DNA of 43,985 bases from positions 1 to 43,985 of the forward strand of contig DAOLDN010000001.1 of the NCBI GenBank assembly GCA_035327385.1, in the 5' to 3' direction. The stretch comes from Verrucomicrobiota bacterium (GTDB lineage Bacteria; Verrucomicrobiota; Verrucomicrobiia; Limisphaerales; JADLHS01). The notes beneath the pieces were generated by a model. That model was given only the letters and a program-made list of their open reading frames with translations. It ran no database searches and was not told the DNA's origin. A program made the translations under genes and the position numbers. Positions 5,260 through 42,958 of this stretch are shown piece after piece (the stretch's first letter is position 1; every line of letters begins with the position of its first letter).

Positions 5260-5787
5260 ATGAGTCAGACCACGGAATTCGGCTATGATTCGCGAATTGA
5301 GGGCGATGTCATCCACACCACGGTGGATGCGGCCATCAATTGGTTTCGCAAGAATTCCATCTGGCCGATGCCGATGGGTCTGGCGTGCTGCGCCATTGAA
5401 TTGATGGCCACGGGGGCAAGTCGCTTCGATATTTCCCGGTTCGGCATGGAGGTCATGCGGTTTTCCCCTCGCCAATCGGACGTGATGATCGTGGCGGGCA
5501 CGGTGACTTACAAAATGGCCATGTCGGTGAAACGCATTTACGACCAGATGGCCGAGCCGAAATGGGTCATCGCCATGGGCGCGTGCGCTTCGACGGGCGG
5601 CATGTATCGCAGTTACGCGGTTTTGCAGGGCGTGGACAACATTTTGCCGGTGGACGTTTATGTGGCGGGTTGTCCACCCCGGCCCGAAGCGTTGCTCGAC
5701 GCGCTGATTAAACTTCAAAACAAGGTTCAATGTGAGCCGTTGCTGGCCACTTTGAAGAAACCCGGCCCGGCGCTGGCCAAGGCTTAA
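5260..5787 (+). CDS. nuoB: NADH-quinone oxidoreductase subunit B
   Basis: Matching stretches are [25 protein letters not shown] and [12 protein letters not shown] (N2 cluster cysteines). Confidence 0.95.
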
Positions 5788-5928
5788 ATGAAATTCCAAG
5801 CTCCAAGCTCCAAGCTCCAGAGAAATTCCAAGCCCCAAGCCCCAAGAGCGTGCGGAGTTGATCGGAATTTGAATTTTGGTGCTTCTCTGGTGCTTGGATG
5901 TTGGTCCTTGGAGCTTCCCTTGCCGTGA
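5788..5928 (+). repeat. family A heptamer palindrome, copy 1 (contains a 46-codon bridging ORF)
   Basis: (CCAAGCT)3 and (CCAAGCC)2 on the left, complementary TTGG-type heptamers on the right, with an inverted core CCAGAGAA / TTCTCTGG. ATG 5788 directly follows the nuoB TAA. The TGA at 5926-5928 overlaps GTG 5925. Confidence 0.85.
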
Positions 5929-6599: not shown

Positions 6600-7894
6600 T
6601 GCCTGAAGTTCACGACATTGAGATTCGCGATTCTGCCGCCCGTGCTGCGGTGGCGGCTAAATCATTGCCGCATCCCATAGAAGAAGATTTGCAGGACATG
6701 CAGGGGGAAAAGATGGTCCTCAACATGGGGCCGTCGCACCCGTCCACGCATGGCGTGTTGCGCATCATTCTGGAATTGGATGGCGAAATCATCACCAAGG
6801 CGATTCCGGACGTGGGTTATTTACATCGTGGCGACGAGAAAATCGCCGAGAACATGACTTACACCCAGTTCATCCCTTACACGGATCGGCTGGATTATCT
6901 CGCGCCGCTGGCGAACAACGTCGCCTACGCGCTCGCGGTGGAAAAACTTCTCGGCATTCACGACAAACTTCCACCCCGCTGCCAATACATCCGCGTGATT
7001 TGCTGCGAGCTGGCGCGCATTTCGTCGCACTTGCTCGGCGTCGGCTGCTTCGCGATGGACGTCGGCGCGATGACGGTGTTCCTGCTTACGTTCACCGAGC
7101 GGGAAAAGATTTACAACCTCGCCGAGGCCCTCAGCGGCGCACGGTTCACGACGAGTTACACACGCATCGGCGGCGTTTCCCGTGACACGCCGCCCGGTTG
7201 GTGTGCAGCGGTACGCAAGTTCATCAACGAAGTCCTCGTCAACATTGACGAAGTCGAGACGCTGCTTACGCGCAACAAAATCTGGGTGGACCGCACGAAG
7301 GACGTGGGCGTCATCTCCAAGGCGGACGCGATTGACTTCGGACTCAGCGGTCCGAATCTCCGCGGCAGCGGCGTGAATTACGATTTGCGCAAAGATCAGC
7401 CGTATCTTTGCTACCAGGATTTGCAGTTCGATGTGCCGCTCGGCGAAGTCGGCGATTGCTACGATCGCTATCTCGTCCGCATGGAAGAGATGCGCCAGAG
7501 CGTGCGCCTCATCCATCAGTGTCTCGACAAAATTCCCGGCGGTTTCGACAACGCATCAAAAGAACCGGTCAATGTGGCCGATGGCAAAATCGTTTTGCCA
7601 CCGAAAAACAAAGTCATGTCGAGCATGGAGGAATTGATTCATCAATTCATGCTCGTGACGCAGGGTGTGAATTGTCCGCCCGGCGAAGTTTATTTTGGCC
7701 ACGAAAATCCGAAGGGTGAACTCGGCTTTTACATCAACAGCCGGGGCGGTGGCACGCCGTATCGGATGAAGATCCGCAGCCCCAGCTTCGTGAATCTGAG
7801 CATCCTGTCGCATCTGTTGCCCGGCCACATGATGAGCGACACGGTTTCGATCCTGGGCTCGTTCGACTTTGTGATGGGAGAATGTGACCGATGA
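6599..7894 (+). CDS. nuoD: NADH-quinone oxidoreductase subunit D
   Basis: MVLNMGPSHPSTHGVLRI...GECDR C-terminus. The ATG overlaps the nuoC TAA by 1 nt (TAATG). Confidence 0.95.
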   Translation: MPEVHDIEIRDSAARAAVAAKSLPHPIEEDLQDMQGEKMVLNMGPSHPSTHGVLRIILELDGEIITKAIPDVGYLHRGDEKIAENMTYTQFIPYTDRLDYLAPLANNVAYALAVEKLLGIHDKLPPRCQYIRVICCELARISSHLLGVGCFAMDVGAMTVFLLTFTEREKIYNLAEALSGARFTTSYTRIGGVSRDTPPGWCAAVRKFINEVLVNIDEVETLLTRNKIWVDRTKDVGVISKADAIDFGLSGPNLRGSGVNYDLRKDQPYLCYQDLQFDVPLGEVGDCYDRYLVRMEEMRQSVRLIHQCLDKIPGGFDNASKEPVNVADGKIVLPPKNKVMSSMEELIHQFMLVTQGVNCPPGEVYFGHENPKGELGFYINSRGGGTPYRMKIRSPSFVNLSILSHLLPGHMMSDTVSILGSFDFVMGECDR

Positions 7895-8044
7895 ACTTTG
7901 CCGCAAAAGAACGCAGAGAACACAAAGGAGCGCGGGTCTGTGACCCGCAGCGGCCCGCTTTGTATTTGAACGTGCTGCGGCTCACAGAGCCGCGCTCCGC
8001 AGAGGTTTTTTGTGCTCTTTGTGTTCTTTCGTGGCTAACATAAA
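7895..8044 (+). repeat. composite element: family B arms enclosing a 72-nt family F palindrome
   Basis: Left arm ACTTTGCCGCAAAAGAACGCAGAGAACACAAAGG (7895-7928). Right arm TTTTGTGCTCTTTGTGTTCTTTCGTGGCTAACA (8007-8040). The inner palindrome 7927-7998 has 25-nt arms GGAGCGCGGGTCTGTGACCCGCAGC / GCTGCGGCTCACAGAGCCGCGCTCC. A 50-codon ORF 7891-8043 bridges the nuoD stop to the nuoE start. Confidence 0.8.
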
Positions 8045-15559: not shown

Positions 15560-15694
15560 ATGAAGCTCCAAACACCAACATCCAACATCCAGGGAAGCAC
15601 CAAGCTTCAAGCTCCAATCGAGGCGCGCGGCGGTATTGGTGTTTGGGATTTGGATGTTCTCTGGAGCTTGGAGCTTGGAGCTTGGAATTTTTAG
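15560..15694 (+). repeat. family A heptamer palindrome, copy 2 (44-codon bridging ORF)
   Basis: ATG 15560 lies 2 nt after the nuoI TGA. The TAG at 15692-15694 lies 1 nt before the nuoJ ATG. Contains a (CCAACAT) array, CCAGGGAA...TTCTCTGG, and (GGAGCTT)3. Confidence 0.85.
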
Positions 15695-17020: not shown

Positions 17021-17021
17021 A

Positions 17022-17162
17022 ATGAAGCTCCAAGCACCAACATCCAACATCCAGAGAAGCACCAAGTCTCAAGCTCCAATCGGGGCGAGCGGCGATTTTG
17101 GTGTTTGGGATTTGGATGTTCTCTGGAGCTTTGAGCTTGGAGCTTGGAATTTTCCGGAATGA
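17022..17162 (+). repeat. family A heptamer palindrome, copy 3 (46-codon bridging ORF)
   Basis: ATG 17022 lies 1 nt after the nuoK TGA. The TGA at 17160-17162 overlaps the nuoL ATG 17159 (ATGA). Confidence 0.85.
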
Positions 17163-22791: not shown

Positions 22792-22800
22792 CTCAATTTG

Positions 22801-24342
22801 ATGTCCACACTGACCTTAATTTTTGCTCTGCCGTTGCTCGCCGCAATCGCACTGGCGTTCGTGCCCCGCAACTTTGCCGTCATCATGCGCGCCGTGGCGG
22901 TGGGCGTGACCGGCGTCACGATGCTGCTGGCTGTGCTGATGTTCTGGCAGTTCAATTGTGTCGAGCCTGATGCCAACGGATACCGGTTTGTCAGCACCAT
23001 TCCCGGACTCGGTGCGGAATCGCTCGGCATCGCCTGCAAGCTGGGCGTGGACGGCTTGAACGTGGGGCTGGTGTTGATGGGCGCGATCGTGGCGTTCGCG
23101 GCGGCGTGCTGCTCGTTCGAGATCAAATCGCGCGAGAAGGAATTTTACATCCTTCTGCTCACGATGACCGGCGGCATCCTCGGCGCGTTCATGTCGCTCG
23201 ACCTGTTTTTCTTCTACTTCTTCCATGAACTCGCGCTCGTGCCGACGTTCATCATGATCGGCGTGTGGGGTCGCGGCGAACGCAAGAATTTCGCGACGTT
23301 CCAGATCACGATTTATCTGAGCATCGGCGCGTTGCTCGCGCTCATCGGCCTCATTGCACTCTATCTGCAATTGCCCGCCGACGTCCGCACGTTCGACATT
23401 CCGACACTGACGAATTATTTCGCCGAAAACACGATGGCGCACAGCGCGCAGATGTTCATCTTCCCGCTGCTGCTGCTGGGCTTCGGAATCCTTGTTTCGC
23501 TCTGGCCATTCCATTCGTGGGCCGCGCTGGGTTACGGCTCTGCTCCAAGCGCAACAGCAATGCTCCATGCCGGCGTCTTGAAAAAGTTCGGGCTTTACGG
23601 TTTGATCCGCATCGCGATTCCGTTTTGTCCGGAGGTGGCGCAATCCCACCTCCAACTCATCGCATGGCTCGCGCTTGGCAACGTGCTTTACGTCGGCTGG
23701 GTGGCGATGCGGCAGAAGAATCTGAACCTGCTCATCGGTAATTCCAGCGTGGCGCACATGGGCATGATCTTCCTGGGCATCGCCAGCCTGAACCTCATCG
23801 GCGTGACCGGCGCGGTGGTCATCATGGTGGCGCACGGTTTCCTCGCGGCGCTGACGTTCGGCCTCAGCGGTTACATCTACAATCAGACCGGCACGCTGGA
23901 AATGAGCGAGCTGGGCGGGCTGGCGAAGAAACTGCGGTTCATCGGCGTGGCGTTTGTGATGGCGGCGATGGCGGGCTGTGGCTTGCCGGGTTTCCTGAAT
24001 TTTGTGGGCGAAGTCAAGGTGTTCTTTGGCGCGTGGCAGGTGCCAGCGTTGCGCACAGTCACGGTGCTGGCAGTGTGGGGCGCGTTGTTGATTGGCGCGG
24101 TTTACATGTTGCGCGCGGTGCGGGCCGTGATGCACGCGGACATGCCAGAAAAATGGGCGGCGGTTTCCGATGCGAACCTGTGGCGCAAGCTGCCGTATGC
24201 GGTGTTGATCGCGAGCCTGTTGGTGTTCGGATGCTTTCCCAAGCTGCTCACAGAAAAGGTCACGCCGGTGACGGAGCAGATTGTAAGCATGGCGACGGTG
24301 AAGCAAGAAGCGCCTGTTGTGGTGGCGGAGATTCAGAAATGA
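22801..24342 (+). CDS. nuoM: NADH-quinone oxidoreductase subunit M
   Basis: ATG 22801 (the track starts at TTG 22798). ND4-like TM pattern, WPFHSWA...HAGVLKKFGLYG. Confidence 0.93.
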   Translation: MSTLTLIFALPLLAAIALAFVPRNFAVIMRAVAVGVTGVTMLLAVLMFWQFNCVEPDANGYRFVSTIPGLGAESLGIACKLGVDGLNVGLVLMGAIVAFAAACCSFEIKSREKEFYILLLTMTGGILGAFMSLDLFFFYFFHELALVPTFIMIGVWGRGERKNFATFQITIYLSIGALLALIGLIALYLQLPADVRTFDIPTLTNYFAENTMAHSAQMFIFPLLLLGFGILVSLWPFHSWAALGYGSAPSATAMLHAGVLKKFGLYGLIRIAIPFCPEVAQSHLQLIAWLALGNVLYVGWVAMRQKNLNLLIGNSSVAHMGMIFLGIASLNLIGVTGAVVIMVAHGFLAALTFGLSGYIYNQTGTLEMSELGGLAKKLRFIGVAFVMAAMAGCGLPGFLNFVGEVKVFFGAWQVPALRTVTVLAVWGALLIGAVYMLRAVRAVMHADMPEKWAAVSDANLWRKLPYAVLIASLLVFGCFPKLLTEKVTPVTEQIVSMATVKQEAPVVVAEIQK

Positions 24343-24482
24343 AAAGCACCAAGCACCAAGCACCAACATCCAGAGAAACTCCAAACCCCAAGCTTCAAGC
24401 GGGCGGCGGGCGTTTCCTGGTATTTGAAAATTGGAGCTTCTCTGGAGCTTGGAGGTTGGAATTTGGAGCTTTCAACAGATGA
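24339..24482 (+). repeat. family A heptamer palindrome, copy 4 (47-codon bridging ORF)
   Basis: The ATG at 24339 overlaps the nuoM TGA (ATGA) and the TGA at 24480-24482 overlaps the nuoN ATG 24479 (ATGA). Contains (CACCAAG) heptamers and CCAGAGAA...TTCTCTGG. Confidence 0.85.
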
Positions 24483-25939
24483 ACCTTTCATTGATGTCAT
24501 TGGAAATCGGGGTGGTGCTGCTGGGCATTGTTGTGCTCATGGCGGATTTGTGGCTGCCGGCGGAGCGCAAGCGCCTGCTCGGATATGGAGCAGCGGTGGT
24601 GCTCGCGCTGCTGTTTGTGAACTCCTTCACCAGCCATTGCAGTTGTGCTCTCAATGGCGAGGCTTTCGGCGGGATGTTCGTGCAGGACGAATTGTCGGTG
24701 TTTTTCAAACGATTCTTCCTGCTGGCGGCGGCGCTCGTGCTGGTGGTGGCGGTGGAATTCTCCGATCGCATCGCCGCAGGCATCTCGGAATATTATTCGC
24801 TCATCATCTTTGCGCTGGCAGGGATGTTGTTCGCCGCGTCTGCAAACGACTTTGCCCTGCTGTTCGTCTCCATCGAACTCATCACGATCACATTCTACGT
24901 GCTGACCAGTTTCACCAGGGCCAAGGTGGCGTCGCTCGAATCCGGTGTGAAATACCTGATCCTCGGCGCGCTGTCGTCGGCCTTCATGGTTTATGGAATC
25001 GCGCTGGTCTGGGGCACGACCGGCGCGTTCAACTTCAGCGAACTGGCGATGGTCAACGCTGACTTCATCGGTAACAGAATCTTCCTGTTCGGCGTGTTGT
25101 TCGTCCTCGTCGGACTCGGATTCAAGATCGCCGCGTTCCCGTTTCAGATCTGGACGCCGGACGTTTATCAAGGAGCGCCCACGCCATCGACGGCGTTTCT
25201 GGCCGTCGGCTCGAAAGCGGCGGGTGTGGTGCTGCTGTTGCGATTCCTGTTCGCGGCGATTCCTGAAGTGACCGCCCAATGGGTGAATCTGTTGATCGTG
25301 ATTTCAGCGGTGACAATCCTTTACGGCAACCTGTGTGCCATTCCACAGCGCAACCTCAAGCGGCTGCTGGGTTATTCGAGCATCGCGCACGCGGGCTACC
25401 TGCTGCTGGGTGTCGCCGCGATGGCGGGGTCAGCATCCGCGGACGGCGGATCGGCGGTGCTGTATTATCTGGCCGGGTATTTGTTCACGACGCTGGCGGC
25501 GTTTGGAGTGATCGCTCTGGTGATGCGCAAGCTCGACAGCGAGGACATCTCCGGGCTGGCTGGATTGAACCAACGTTCGCCGTTGCTGGCCACCACGATG
25601 ACGCTGGCGATGGTTTCGCTGGCGGGAATTCCACCCTTGGCTGGATTCTTCGGAAAATTTCTGCTGCTCAAAGCCGTCATCGAGCAGGGAGGGTCGAATC
25701 CCGGCTATTACTGTCTGGCGTTCACGGCGTTGGTGGGTGTGGTCATCTCGCTTTACTACTACTTTGGCGTGATCCGCGCCATTTACTGGAGCAAGGACGT
25801 GCCGGACAATTCGCCCATCGCCATCACCCGGCCGATGAAGCTTGCGATGGCCGTGTGCATCGGCGGGATGTTCTGGCTGGGGCTGTTTCCGGGGTCGGTG
25901 CTGGCCCTGGCGGATTCGGCGGCGACTCTTTTACAATAA
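24479..25939 (+). CDS. nuoN: NADH-quinone oxidoreductase subunit N
   Basis: Start trimmed to MNLSLMSLEIGVVLLGIVVL. ND2-like protein with FPFQIWTPDVYQGAPTP. Confidence 0.92.
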   Translation: MNLSLMSLEIGVVLLGIVVLMADLWLPAERKRLLGYGAAVVLALLFVNSFTSHCSCALNGEAFGGMFVQDELSVFFKRFFLLAAALVLVVAVEFSDRIAAGISEYYSLIIFALAGMLFAASANDFALLFVSIELITITFYVLTSFTRAKVASLESGVKYLILGALSSAFMVYGIALVWGTTGAFNFSELAMVNADFIGNRIFLFGVLFVLVGLGFKIAAFPFQIWTPDVYQGAPTPSTAFLAVGSKAAGVVLLLRFLFAAIPEVTAQWVNLLIVISAVTILYGNLCAIPQRNLKRLLGYSSIAHAGYLLLGVAAMAGSASADGGSAVLYYLAGYLFTTLAAFGVIALVMRKLDSEDISGLAGLNQRSPLLATTMTLAMVSLAGIPPLAGFFGKFLLLKAVIEQGGSNPGYYCLAFTALVGVVISLYYYFGVIRAIYWSKDVPDNSPIAITRPMKLAMAVCIGGMFWLGLFPGSVLALADSAATLLQ

Positions 25940-33878: not shown

Positions 33879-34036
33879 TCTCCCTCACCCTGACCCTCTC
33901 CCGCTGGGAGAGGGAAAAGTCATTGGGCGTTTTTTGCTTTTGCCAACGATTGACTAGCCAATACCGTCGCAGGTTCGCGGCAGAGGCGGCGTTTGATTCT
34001 CCCTCTCCCAGTGGGAGAGGGCCGGGGTGAGGGTGA
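33879..34036. repeat. inverted pair of family E hairpin repeats
   Basis: TTCTCCCTCACCCTGACCCTCTCCCGCTGGGAGAGGG (33879-33914) and CTCCCTCTCCCAGTGGGAGAGGGCCGGGGTGAGGGTGA (33999-34036) flank 84 nt. Confidence 0.8.
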
Positions 34037-34151: not shown

Positions 34152-35492
34152 ATGAAGCAACAATTCAAAGTCATCGAAGGTTCAATCACGGCGCCGCAAG
34201 GCTTCCTCGCCAGCGGAGTGTTTTGCGACATCAAACGCCTGGGCACGGGCAAAGGGTCGCAGAAAGGAAAGAAACGCGACCTCGCACTCATCGTTTCCGA
34301 AGTGCCGGCGACCGTCGCGGGCATGTTCACGACCAATCAGGTCTGTGCCGCGCCTGTGAAAGTGTGTGCTGAACGCGTGAAGAAAGGCGTGGCGCAGGCG
34401 ATTGTCGTGAACTCCGGCAATGCCAACGCCTGCACCGGCCGACAGGGCATGAAGGACGCACGCGAAATGACGGCGCAGGTCGCGAAGATTTTTCACATGC
34501 CGGAACAACATGTTCTGGTCGGCAGCACAGGACGCATCGGAGTGACGATGCCGATGGACAATGTGAGATCGGGCATCCGCCACGCCGCGCAGTTACTGGG
34601 CAACGATGCCGCTCATGCCACCGAAACCGCTGAAGCCATCATGACCAGCGATTCGCGCCAGAAACAGATTGCCGTTGAATTCAAATTGGGTGGCAAAACG
34701 GTGCGCATTGGCGGCATTTGCAAGGGCGCAGGAATGATCCAACCGGGAATGTCCGCCACCGGCGCACGACCGGCTGCGTTGCCGCACGGTGGATTGCACG
34801 CGACGATGCTGGGTTTTATCACCACGGACGCCGCGATTGAGGCAAAAGCGTTGCAGGCCGCGTTGCAGGAAGCCGTGGCGAACAGTTTCAACCGCATCAC
34901 CGTGGATGGCGACATGAGCACGAACGACACGGTGCTGGTGCTGGCGAATGGGCTGGCGGGGAATGAAAACATCCAACATCCAACATCCAACATCCAACAC
35001 CGAACGTTTCAGGCTGCGCTCACGTATGTCTGTCTGGAACTGGCGAAGATGATTGTACGCGATGGCGAAGGCGTGCATCGCGTGGTGACTGTGCGCGTGA
35101 ACGGCGCAAAGACGATTCAAGATGCCGATGCCGCCGCGCGTGCGGTGGCGAACAGCGCGCTAGTAAAAACAAGCTGGCACGGCGGCGACCCGAACTGGGG
35201 GCGCATCATTGACGCCATCGGTTATTCTCCGGCAACTGTCGTGGAGGAGAAGATTGACATCGGCTATTCCGCGCCCGGCAGCCGGAAGGTTCTATGGAGC
35301 TTGAAACGCGGCCAGCCGACGAAGGCGACGTTCAAGCAACTGTGTCTCGCCGTTGCTCCCAAGGAATTCGAACTGCGCATCAACCTTAACCTCGGCAAGG
35401 CCGCCGCCGTCATGTATGCAGCAGATTTGACCGAGGAATACGTGGACTTTAACAAAGGCGACGTGACTGATCCGACGACACTGGGAGGCTGA
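34152..35492 (+). CDS. argJ: bifunctional ornithine acetyltransferase / N-acetylglutamate synthase
   Basis: Start trimmed to MKQQFKVIEGSITAPQGFLASG. Matching stretches are the autoprocessing site HATMLGFITTDA, NRITVDGDMSTNDT and IVRDGEG. Confidence 0.9.
   Translation: MKQQFKVIEGSITAPQGFLASGVFCDIKRLGTGKGSQKGKKRDLALIVSEVPATVAGMFTTNQVCAAPVKVCAERVKKGVAQAIVVNSGNANACTGRQGMKDAREMTAQVAKIFHMPEQHVLVGSTGRIGVTMPMDNVRSGIRHAAQLLGNDAAHATETAEAIMTSDSRQKQIAVEFKLGGKTVRIGGICKGAGMIQPGMSATGARPAALPHGGLHATMLGFITTDAAIEAKALQAALQEAVANSFNRITVDGDMSTNDTVLVLANGLAGNENIQHPTSNIQHRTFQAALTYVCLELAKMIVRDGEGVHRVVTVRVNGAKTIQDADAAARAVANSALVKTSWHGGDPNWGRIIDAIGYSPATVVEEKIDIGYSAPGSRKVLWSLKRGQPTKATFKQLCLAVAPKEFELRINLNLGKAAAVMYAADLTEEYVDFNKGDVTDPTTLGG
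34970..34997 (+). repeat. (CATCCAA)x4 heptamer array inside argJ
   Basis: Four perfect tandem heptamers, translated in frame as NIQHPTSNIQH. The heptamer is the same one as in the left arms of family A. Confidence 0.9.
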
Positions 35493-41348: not shown

Positions 41349-42230
41349 ATGCAAGACCTTATCGCAAAAGCCGCCACACTGCTGGAGGCGCTGCCCTACA
41401 TCCAGCGTTTCCGCACCCAGACGTTCGTCGTCAAGTATGGCGGATCGTTCATGGATTCGCCAGACCCCTCCATCCGCAACGGCGTGGCGCGCGACGTCGT
41501 GTTTCTTGAGGCTGTCGGAATCAATCCCATCGTGGTTCACGGCGGTGGCAAGGCCATCACTCGCGCCATGGAGGCCGCCGGATTGAAAGCTCAATTCATC
41601 CAAGGCCAGCGCGTCACGGACGAGGCGACCGCGCTGGTGGTGGACCGCGTGCTGTCGCGCGAGATCAATCCCGAAATCGTCAAGACCATCGAATCGTTGG
41701 GCGGCAAGGCGCGCGGGTTCAGCGGCGCGGACATCTTCAAGTGCCGGAAACTGCTGGTGGACGACAAGGAAAACCCCGGAAAGAAGATTGACGTCGGTTA
41801 CGTGGGCGAAGTCGTTGAGGTGAACACCGACCCGTTGCGCCAGTGCATCCGTCGCGGAGTGACGCCGGTCATCAGCCCGGTGGCGCTTGGCGAGGACGGA
41901 ATGATCTACAACTGCAACGCCGACGTTGGCGCCGCGCAAACGGCCATTGCCCTGAAAGCGAAACGTCTTGTGTTCATGAGCGACGTGCCGGGGTTGTTGT
42001 CCGATCCGAAGAATCCCGACTCGCTGATTCCACATCTCAAGACCGAAGCCGTGGCCGAATTGAAGGCGTTGGGCGTGATTGACAAGGGAATGATCCCCAA
42101 GGTGGACAGCGCCGTGGCCGCCATCAAGACCGGCGTGGAAAAAGTCTCCTTCGTGGACGGCCGCGTGCAACATTCCGTGCTGCTGGAGATTTTCACCGAT
42201 GAAGGTGTGGGCACGGAAGTGGTCTTGTGA
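41349..42230 (+). CDS. argB: acetylglutamate kinase
   Basis: Start trimmed to [21 protein letters not shown]. Matching stretches are VVKYGGS, VVHGGG and NCNADVGAAQTAIAL. Confidence 0.93.
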   Translation: MQDLIAKAATLLEALPYIQRFRTQTFVVKYGGSFMDSPDPSIRNGVARDVVFLEAVGINPIVVHGGGKAITRAMEAAGLKAQFIQGQRVTDEATALVVDRVLSREINPEIVKTIESLGGKARGFSGADIFKCRKLLVDDKENPGKKIDVGYVGEVVEVNTDPLRQCIRRGVTPVISPVALGEDGMIYNCNADVGAAQTAIALKAKRLVFMSDVPGLLSDPKNPDSLIPHLKTEAVAELKALGVIDKGMIPKVDSAVAAIKTGVEKVSFVDGRVQHSVLLEIFTDEGVGTEVVL

Positions 42231-42262
42231 TTTGGGATTTACGAATTACGATTTACGCGTAG
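42228..42262 (+). repeat. family C 8-mer arm (left type)
   Basis: TGATTTGGGATTTACGAATTACGATTTACGCG. The argB TGA is its first triplet. It shares the 19-mer GATTTACGAATTACGATTT with 42882-42907. Confidence 0.8.
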
Positions 42263-42296
42263 TGCGCGAACCGGGGACGAGCGCAGCCATCGCGCA

Positions 42297-42869
42297 ATGT
42301 CAGTCCGTGAACACGACGCATACATACTTCGCGAGAACACCGGAACATCCGGCGTGGTGGAATCCGCCCGAACCGCCGTCGAACTGCTGGCGGATCACGA
42401 CATTCCGCATCTGATTGTCGGCGGGCTTGCCGTCCAGGAACACGGCTATCCACGGGTGACCATGGACGTGAACATTGTTGTTCCGGACGTGATGGAGGCC
42501 GTGGAATGGTTGACAGCAAACCTGACCGGGCCGTTTTACCGTGTGGCCGATTTTCCTGACCGCGTCGAATACCGCCGCAATGGCGTGATGATTGACGTGC
42601 TGCCCGCCGGACGGGTTGTGAAAGACGGCTGCAAGGTTCCGTTTCCAACCCCGATCCGGGTCACGGAGCAGTTTCAGATCGTGACTCTGGAGGATTTGAT
42701 CTCTCTCAAACTGGACAGTTGGAGCAACAGCCCACACAAGCGGCTCCGGGACAAATCGGACGTTGTGGAACTGATCCAGCGCCGCAAATTGCCTCGCGAC
42801 CTGGCCGTCAATCCCGTCGTGCGCCCCCTCTACATCGAAACCTGGGACGCGTTGAACGCTGAGAAGTGA
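42297..42869 (+). CDS. hypothetical protein, possible minimal nucleotidyltransferase fold
   Basis: HLIVGGLAVQEHGYPRVTMDVNIVV resembles the GG..A...HG..R.T.D.D. motif of small NTases/AbiEii-like proteins, but reads D-V-N. The start is uncertain. Confidence 0.5.
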   Translation: MSVREHDAYILRENTGTSGVVESARTAVELLADHDIPHLIVGGLAVQEHGYPRVTMDVNIVVPDVMEAVEWLTANLTGPFYRVADFPDRVEYRRNGVMIDVLPAGRVVKDGCKVPFPTPIRVTEQFQIVTLEDLISLKLDSWSNSPHKRLRDKSDVVELIQRRKLPRDLAVNPVVRPLYIETWDALNAEK

Positions 42870-42958
42870 TTTGCGATTTGCGATTTACGATTTACGAATT
42901 ACGATTTGCCCGCGAATCCAAGTTGGACTTGTAAATCATAAATCGCATATCGTAAATC
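42868..42958 (+). repeat. family C palindrome (8-mer arms)
   Basis: Left arm GATTTGCGATTTGCGATTTACGATTTACGAATTACGATTTGCC. Spacer CGCGAATCCAAGTTGGACTT. Right arm GTAAATCATAAATCGCATATCGTAAATC. Confidence 0.8.

Follow-up and report, generated by a model that had tools for sequence, protein, structure and literature searches.

A putative relay of translational coupling through a palindromic heptamer repeat between nuoM and nuoN in a Verrucomicrobiota genome

The nuoM-nuoN junction and its palindromic element

The window analyzed here is the whole of a 43,985-nt stretch (contig DAOLDN010000001.1, positions 1 to 43,985) from a metagenome-assembled genome of a Verrucomicrobiota bacterium (Pedosphaerales/Limisphaerales group; soil/freshwater; assembly of 4.19 Mb). 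At the junction between nuoM and nuoN, which belong to the complex I operon, this stretch carries a 131-nt palindromic element built of 7-nt units, named family A, and the element is crossed from end to end by a short open reading frame (ORF), which we call the relay ORF (Table 1). The nuoM ORF has 513 or 514 aa, with its start at 22798 (TTG) or 22801 and its stop TGA at 24340-24342, and matches TIGR01972 with 358.9 bits (cut-off 263.8). The nuoN product matches TIGR01770 with 385 bits (cut-off 332.6), and its N-terminus MNLSL aligns with residue 1 of the orthologues. The sequence-only reading of this DNA had described a 47-codon ORF coupled to both neighbors by 4-nt overlaps. The overlap structure proved exact to the nucleotide: the ATG of the relay ORF overlaps the nuoM TGA (...gag att cag aaA TGA aaagcacc...), its own TGA overlaps the nuoN ATG (...caacagATGAacc..., cagATGAacc), and the interval comprises 47 sense codons and a stop. 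Among the four family A copies of the window, this one alone carries exact ATGA overlaps on both sides, and it was rightly singled out as the cleanest example. As for coupling in the functional sense, it is supported strongly, if indirectly, by the family statistics given below, with translation of the frame deduced from them. What had been omitted is that the ORF sits on a genome-wide palindromic repeat, conserved mainly at the nucleotide level with a period of 7 nt.

The relay ORF translates as MKSTKHQAPTSRETPNPKLQAGGGRFLVFENWSFSGAWRLEFGAFNR*, and this peptide had no family match in Pfam or NCBIfam searches. Its frame stays open for another 738 nt upstream, out of frame over the 3' part of nuoM, where it forms a 149-aa ORF with a GTG start (24033-24482). 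This upstream opening is probably a mere stop-poor alternative frame of a high-GC gene.

Table 1. Features of the nuoM-nuoN junction and the other family A copies of the window
Feature	Position	Strand	Basis or remark
nuoM (NADH-quinone oxidoreductase subunit M)	22798..24342	+	Pfam PF00361; NCBIfam TIGR01972; ORF list
GGAG, 8 nt 5' of the relay ATG	24327..24330	+	sequence; empty-site junctions
First ATGA junction: relay-ORF ATG (24339-24341) over nuoM TGA (24340-24342)	24339..24342	+	sequence
Relay mini-ORF, 47 sense codons + stop	24339..24482	+	ORF list, sequence; no Pfam/NCBIfam match
Family A palindromic heptamer element, 131 nt, A-run start, T-run end	24342..24472		nhmmer E=1e-39; fold
Left arm	24342..24398	+	sequence; family logo
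Variable G+C-rich loop region	24399..24423	+	sequence, fold; length and sequence vary among copies
Right arm	24424..24472	+	sequence
Spacer CAACAG, 6 nt, from element terminus to nuoN start	24473..24478	+	sequence, fold
Second ATGA junction: nuoN ATG (24479-24481) over relay-ORF TGA (24480-24482)	24479..24482	+	sequence
nuoN (NADH-quinone oxidoreductase subunit N)	24479..25939	+	Pfam, TIGR01770, orthologue alignment
Sister copy nuoB-nuoC	5787..5919	+	46-aa frame, TAA-ATG to GTGA
Sister copy nuoI-nuoJ	15560..15693	+	44-aa frame, end TAG-a-ATG; orthologous copies in G028, G013
Sister copy nuoK-nuoL	17021..17155	+	46-aa frame, ATGA end on nuoL

The left arm of the element is an array of CCAAnnn heptamers (CCAA cores at 24349, 24356, 24363, 24381 and 24388, TCAA at 24395 and a central box CCAGAGAA at 24370-24377) and is C-rich and G-poor, and the right arm is built of nnnTTGG heptamers (TTGG cores at 24431, 24449, 24456 and 24463, box TTCTCTGG at 24438-24445), opening with a TTGA at 24424 whose TGA lies off the relay frame. 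The last GGAG of the right arm (24465-24468) stands 10 nt ahead of the nuoN ATG; a general role for this motif as a Shine-Dalgarno supply was considered and dropped, because its spacing in other copies runs from 3 to about 19 nt. The RNA of the nuoM-nuoN copy is predicted to fold at -52.8 kcal/mol (z=-4.0), within the range of the four copies of the window (-52 to -62 kcal/mol, z -3.3 to -5.8). The base of this hairpin takes in the nuoM stop and the relay start, and on the 3' side the stem reaches to 6 nt from the nuoN ATG. In the fold model, the 6-nt spacer leaves no space for an unstructured ribosome landing site.

When an nhmmer profile made from the four copies of the window was run on the host genome, about 124 family A loci were found, 78 of them full length; 24 of 41 related Pedosphaerales/Limisphaerales genomes also carry family A, some of these genomes belonging to other families of the order. 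In the logo of 135 termini, CCAA is invariant each 7 nt, a variable R-Y-W triplet lies between, and the terminus AAGCT is conserved (consensus termini AAGCTCC...GGAGCTT), and the arms are 70% Watson-Crick complementary in a fixed register. Judging by this logo, the 7-nt conservation period cannot come from protein-level selection.

The relay frame in relatives and across the repeat family

The nuoM-nuoN junction was compared at 50-odd orthologous sites of related genomes (L numbers). The insert-free junctions of L011, L016, L020, L022, L028 and L029 read ...aaATGAAC, with a 4-nt overlap of stop and start, and the ancestral state of the junction, as reconstructed from these sequences, is a plain ATGA overlap. 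A GGAG or GGA occupies the same spot ahead of nuoN in the insert-free relatives L011, L020, L022 and L029, and therefore the GGAG ahead of the relay ATG probably served nuoN as ribosome-binding site in the ancestral state and now serves the relay ORF. In L023, the same element is found at nuoM-nuoN with the same double-ATGA frame. Read-through was assessed in 52 relatives, and a translated frame nearly always reaches the nuoN ATG, by plain overlap or by read-through of nuoM. In most of the relatives with other inserts at this junction, the frame ending on the nuoN ATG extends back more than 1,800 nt, as a C-terminal extension of nuoM; such an in-frame extension ending in ATGA on nuoN is, as far as these sequences can be read, an alternative 'solution' to the relay ORF. 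G013 and G028, the latter from a different family of the order, hold the nuoI-nuoJ copy at the orthologous site, with no indels in the element and with the 44-aa frame intact and ending at the same TAG. Therefore, some copies are old and have retained their frames.

Frame statistics were collected from a pooled set of 94 copies lying between co-directional genes (tandem copies) in seven genomes, 60 of which have an ATG, GTG or TTG abutting the element, and a set of 60 loci from the six genomes other than the host served for replication. In the 60 start-bearing copies, stops within the element numbered 7, 37 and 37 in frames 0, +1 and +2 (chi-square p=1.5e-5), which makes frame 0 about five-fold poorer in stops than the other two frames of the same elements. 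The 34 start-less tandem copies gave 20, 13 and 21 across the frames. With a broader definition, which accepts an ATG anywhere in the 15 nt directly upstream of the element, an internal stop was met in 6 of 64 ATG-led frames vs 105 of 218 other frames (p=5e-9). In the host genome, 25 of 31 start-bearing tandem frames remain open through the element and stop from -3 to +14 nt of the right terminus; the +2 frame is internally stopped in 18 of these 31 copies, and in start-less copies about half of all frames hold an internal stop. The six other genomes contributed 29 start-bearing frames, 18 leaving at the boundary and 2 with an internal stop.

The frames also end where the next gene begins. Of the 60 pooled frames, 43 end within -3 to +14 nt of the right terminus, 22 by an exact ATGA on the next start, and about 10 more by a stop followed by one or two nucleotides and ATG. 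Relay-bearing copies have a median spacer of 5 nt to the next start vs 23 nt in relay-less copies (p=0.007); for the tandem copies of the host genome as a whole, the median distance from element to next start is 5 nt. Relay copies measure 116 to 180 nt in length, with all three classes modulo 3 represented; therefore, the frame phase was not inherited from one master length.

The position of the element relative to genes agrees with this arrangement. Two-ended copies in the host genome lie mostly between co-directional genes (48 of 60), with 7 in convergent and 2 in divergent gene pairs. At the 70 element ends that face the 3' end of a gene, a stop codon stands at the element boundary, and at about 24 of them the last A of the stop is the first A of the element; the abutting codons at these ends include 37 TGA and 28 ATG. 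In contrast, ATG abuts only 2 of the 58 ends facing the 5' end of a gene. Upstream ends carry ATGA eight times as often as the genome background (2.7%). In the six other genomes, ATG was found at 24 of 64 upstream ends vs 2 of 50 downstream ends, and over all seven genomes a boundary ATG marks 48 of 94 upstream ends in tandem context vs 0 of 28 in convergent context (p=8e-8). Taken together, these counts show that selection across the family holds the relay frame open and ends it on the next start.

A proposed relay of ribosomes and its alternatives

Considering the above results, we propose that the relay ORF reinstates coupling by stop and restart over a hairpin of about -53 kcal/mol, which belongs to a non-autonomous repeat resembling repetitive extragenic palindromes (REPs) and miniature inverted-repeat transposable elements (MITEs) and sits at a former ATGA junction. 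We give this reading a probability of roughly 0.7. Insertion of the element would have broken the ancestral -4 coupling by 137 nt, and the hairpin alone would uncouple nuoN and bury its initiation region, where a 30S subunit could hardly land de novo. In the proposed model, a ribosome terminates at the nuoM TGA and would restart at the overlapping ATG, with the old GGAG 8 nt upstream. It would then translate 47 codons through both arms, unwinding the hairpin en route, stop at the TGA overlapping the nuoN ATG and restart on nuoN, the relay peptide being a by-product. Stop-restart at -4 nt, the most efficient form of coupling, and the helicase activity of the ribosome are both established (review PMC12548453). 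We infer that ribosomes use the relay frame and that restored coupling is its benefit. Possible extra benefits would be that the C-rich, G-poor left arm, once translated, is shielded from Rho, and that a trailing ribosome prevents termination or cleavage dependent on the hairpin.

Several points weigh against this proposal. Copies within the same genome are not phylogenetically independent, which makes the p-values optimistic; the copies do differ in length (116-180 nt), and the effect sizes and the replication in six other genomes are the stronger argument. Start-codon positions are approximate, because genes were called by a crude codon-model caller before the frames were examined in the raw sequence. 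About one third of tandem copies have no relay frame, and therefore the frame is not obligatory for persistence of the element. Mismatches of the G-U and A-C kinds between the arms, counted in fixed register, numbered 168 vs 164, with no excess on the sense strand and therefore no sign of selection on the sense-RNA hairpin itself. In addition, the ATGA at both ends could partly be a signature of insertion and not of selection.

The last point can be carried further, to the idea that the frame is an insertion scar and nothing else. A repeat inserting at start codons or ATGA junctions, in the manner of MITEs or of mycobacterial interspersed repetitive units (MIRUs), would duplicate the ATGA, and a stop-free master copy would then leave frames that no selection maintains. 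ATGA does flank the nuoM-nuoN copy on both sides, the family consensus is stop-poor, and MIRUs have been reported with tetranucleotide direct repeats and start-codon insertion (PMC12548453, PMC3184786). The restriction of the boundary ATG to places with a downstream start would also follow from an insertion that duplicates ATG. However, the flanks of other copies share no direct repeat past ATG(A), and the terminus and the second ATG are 0-9 nt apart instead of abutting. Real copies hold many stops and avoid frame 0 in placing them (7 vs 37 vs 37), the spread of lengths over all modulo-3 classes has not kept frames from ending at the next start, and the frame persists in old copies shared at orthologous sites by different families of the order. 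We therefore consider the scar unlikely as the whole explanation.

Alternatively, the hairpin may be the functional unit, serving as an RNase III/E site, a 3' stabilizer, an attenuator or a weak bidirectional terminator, with the ORF as a translation-dependent switch that sets the stoichiometry of the distal nuo products. The folds are stable, A-run and T-run termini flank the stem, copies stand directly after stop codons in convergent pairs too, the C-rich, G-poor left arm is rut-like, and some copies are kept at orthologous sites across families. Against this, a terminator scan of 23800-25000 found nothing at the nuoM-nuoN copy, where the T-run is 3 nt; 3 nt is also the mean T-run of the family, below the five or more T that an intrinsic terminator carries after its G+C-rich stem. 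The sense strand has no wobble bias, the variable triplets of the heptamers are mostly non-complementary, and the many repeat families found at the same junctions in relatives indicate a tolerated insertion site instead of a specific RNA device. A role of this kind seems rather improbable to us. A broader version would take the heptamer hairpins as an order-wide translation-sensing device, a distributed brake that ties translation rate to operon output. Relay translation would keep the hairpin melted so that the distal nuo genes are made, and when translation slows, the hairpin would fold or the C-rich arm would be exposed to Rho, and the operon would be cut or silenced at that point. If this were true, the retention of the nuoI-nuoJ copy across families and the several heptamer families at the same junctions would be signs of domestication. 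We regard this version as speculative and doubtful.

It is very improbable that the 47 aa make up a small protein with a function of its own, such as a membrane-associated peptide, encoded by a multi-copy gene family. The frame is kept open, and a hydrophilic N-half rich in K/Q/P/S and a C-half rich in W/L/G/F are common to the products, but amino-acid selection could not produce a 7-nt period in which CCAA is invariant and the next triplet variable. The heptamer register differs among copies (MKLQAP... vs MKSTKHQAP...), lengths range over 42-56 aa with unrelated loops, Pfam and NCBIfam give no match, and the element also occurs start-less and on either strand. Chance is scarcely credible: the consensus arms lack TAA, TAG and TGA in any frame and ATGA is common at gene junctions, but about half of non-start frames are stopped vs 9% of ATG-led ones, and both this and the excess of ATGA at upstream ends stand against a stop-poor repeat that happens to be open, the pattern being repeated in six other genomes.

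Comparison with known repeats and other repeats of the region

Among known systems, MIRUs are the closest analogue of family A. They insert at start codons and carry an ORF with -4 nt coupling (Supply et al. 1997, described in PMC12548453 and PMC3184786); they have also been reported to be transcribed as part of polycistrons, to have tetranucleotide direct repeats at their filled sites and to overlap the adjacent genes with the ends of their ORF (PMC3184786). Family A resembles them as an intra-operon repeat oriented with the genes, whose small ORF overlaps the upstream stop and the downstream start by -4 nt, and in both cases the ORF is read as the means by which a polycistron accommodates the inserted repeat while expression is little affected. 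The likeness in direct repeats is partial: the nuoM-nuoN copy has ATGA on both sides where empty sites have a single ATGA, and other copies share ATG or nothing. In contrast, MIRUs are 40-100-bp units of actinobacteria (Mycobacterium), often in tandem arrays (variable number tandem repeats), with no long palindromes, whereas family A places one imperfect hairpin of about 131 nt, made of 7-nt units, at each junction in Verrucomicrobiota, and its frame has to cross about -53 kcal/mol. Since phylum and architecture differ, homology to MIRU units, which were compared by description, is unlikely; by analogy, the element would function like a MIRU without being one.

Long palindromes of the MITE type include ERIC/IRU in enterobacteria, Correia/NEMIS in Neisseria and RUP/BOX in pneumococci (reviewed in PMC3184786). 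Family A shares with them a size of 100-200 bp, full-length inverted arms, a stable RNA hairpin, many copies at transcribed intergenic sites and the lack of a transposase. It has terminal inverted repeats, is shorter than 400 bp (131 nt) and holds only an ORF without family match, all of which agree with a MITE. ORFs fused to neighboring genes are also known there, but they are occasional, whereas the bridging frame is systematic in family A, and the arms of family A differ in being arrays of phased heptamers. A comparison of the left and right flanks of all tandem copies for a target-site duplication found nothing shared beyond ATG(A), and therefore no insertion mechanism can be named. Arm pairs with gaps up to 6 kb in the host genome, searched for autonomous or cargo-bearing copies, enclose no transposase-like gene; the larger loops between arms (100-500 nt) contain no called gene, and no matching autonomous insertion sequence was found.

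REPs, associated with RAYT transposases as REPINs, are 20-40-bp palindromes with a GTAG or CGTC tag, and in GTAG REPs the termini frequently supply the stop codon of a flanking ORF (PMC3733652). Family A is likewise an extragenic palindrome near or overlapping stop codons, and Y1 transposase genes are abundant in these genomes, but at 131 nt and without a GTAG or CGTC tag it is a different kind of repeat. No link to RAYT was found: the four listed Y1_Tnp loci of genome G000 (contigs C255, C490, C78 and C46) are on contigs without family A copies, and Y1_Tnp occurs in 39 of 41 genomes irrespective of the presence of family A, which makes that comparison uninformative. Short 'delivery' ORFs resemble the relay ORF in that their sole role is to bring the ribosome to the next start, with the helicase of the ribosome clearing inhibitory structure; they have been described as single, locus-specific cases (review PMC12548453), whereas the relay device is carried by, or has repeatedly evolved on, a dispersed repeat family. 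No description of the family A repeat in Verrucomicrobia or Pedosphaera was found in the literature searched.

If the proposed relay holds, essential operons, such as that of complex I with its four copies here, can accommodate a dispersed palindromic repeat, since ribosomes are passed over the repeat on a relay frame that runs from start to stop. This would extend the MIRU idea from short mycobacterial direct repeats to long hairpins in a distant phylum. The family offers natural material for testing if reinitiating ribosomes get through very stable structure and over what distance coupling can be passed on, and a relay ORF through a structured spacer may serve in the design of synthetic operons. 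In Verrucomicrobiota genomes and metagenomes, relay frames likely go under the label 'hypothetical proteins'; they also inflate the models of upstream and downstream genes, and recognizing them would improve annotation.

Other repeats occupy the same junctions. At nuoM-nuoN, other palindromes fill the site in L010, L012, L014, L017, L021, L024, L025, L027, L030, L043, L046, L065 and L068, at a distance of about 200-500 nt ahead of position 2501 of the L sequences, and they include REP-like GTAGC...GCTAC pairs and CCCTCACCCC...GGGGTGAGGG pairs; in these relatives nuoM continues through the palindromes in frame, up to the ATGA on nuoN. Distinct heptamer palindromes stand at nuoM-nuoN in L019, L034, L035, L040, L056, L057 and L063 and at nuoI-nuoJ in L149, L159, L162, L166 and L170. 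The units of such other palindrome families include CACGAAT, CCAATGA, CCGAAAA, CACAGAT, CTCCGAA, GGCAATC and TTTCAAG, and from their sequences these families appear to form a superfamily of 7-nt-unit hairpins. In G003 (C1:2347006-2347350) and G039 (C82:15492-15827), Y1 transposase genes of the IS200/RAYT type lie within about 1-1.5 kb of nuoJ on its upstream side, in the nuo operon or beside it; therefore, nuo junctions gather mobile genes besides repeats.

A sister subfamily of family A, in which TCCGAAA units replace CTCCAAG with the overall architecture alike, is found in G000 (C24:11962-12090 and C440:1110-1247), and one of its copies begins with ATGAAATCCGAAG. In the window itself, the nuoD-nuoE spacer (7891-8043) is made of a different repeat family and is crossed by an open 50-codon frame, which opens at an ATGA overlapping the nuoD stop and closes at a TAA that precedes the nuoE ATG by 1 nt. 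At 33879-34036, a 40-nt inverted repeat of CCCTCACCC/GGGTGAGGG type belongs to the same family as the nuoM-nuoN repeats of L009, L014, L017, L024 and others, and CGATTTA/CGAATTA heptamer arrays at 42225-42912 represent a further family of 7-nt-unit repeats. Finally, a run of CATCCAA heptamers at 34962-35005, equivalent to the left arm only, lies within a gene of 446 aa (34152-35492) and is apparently read in frame as ...NENIQHPTSNIQH...

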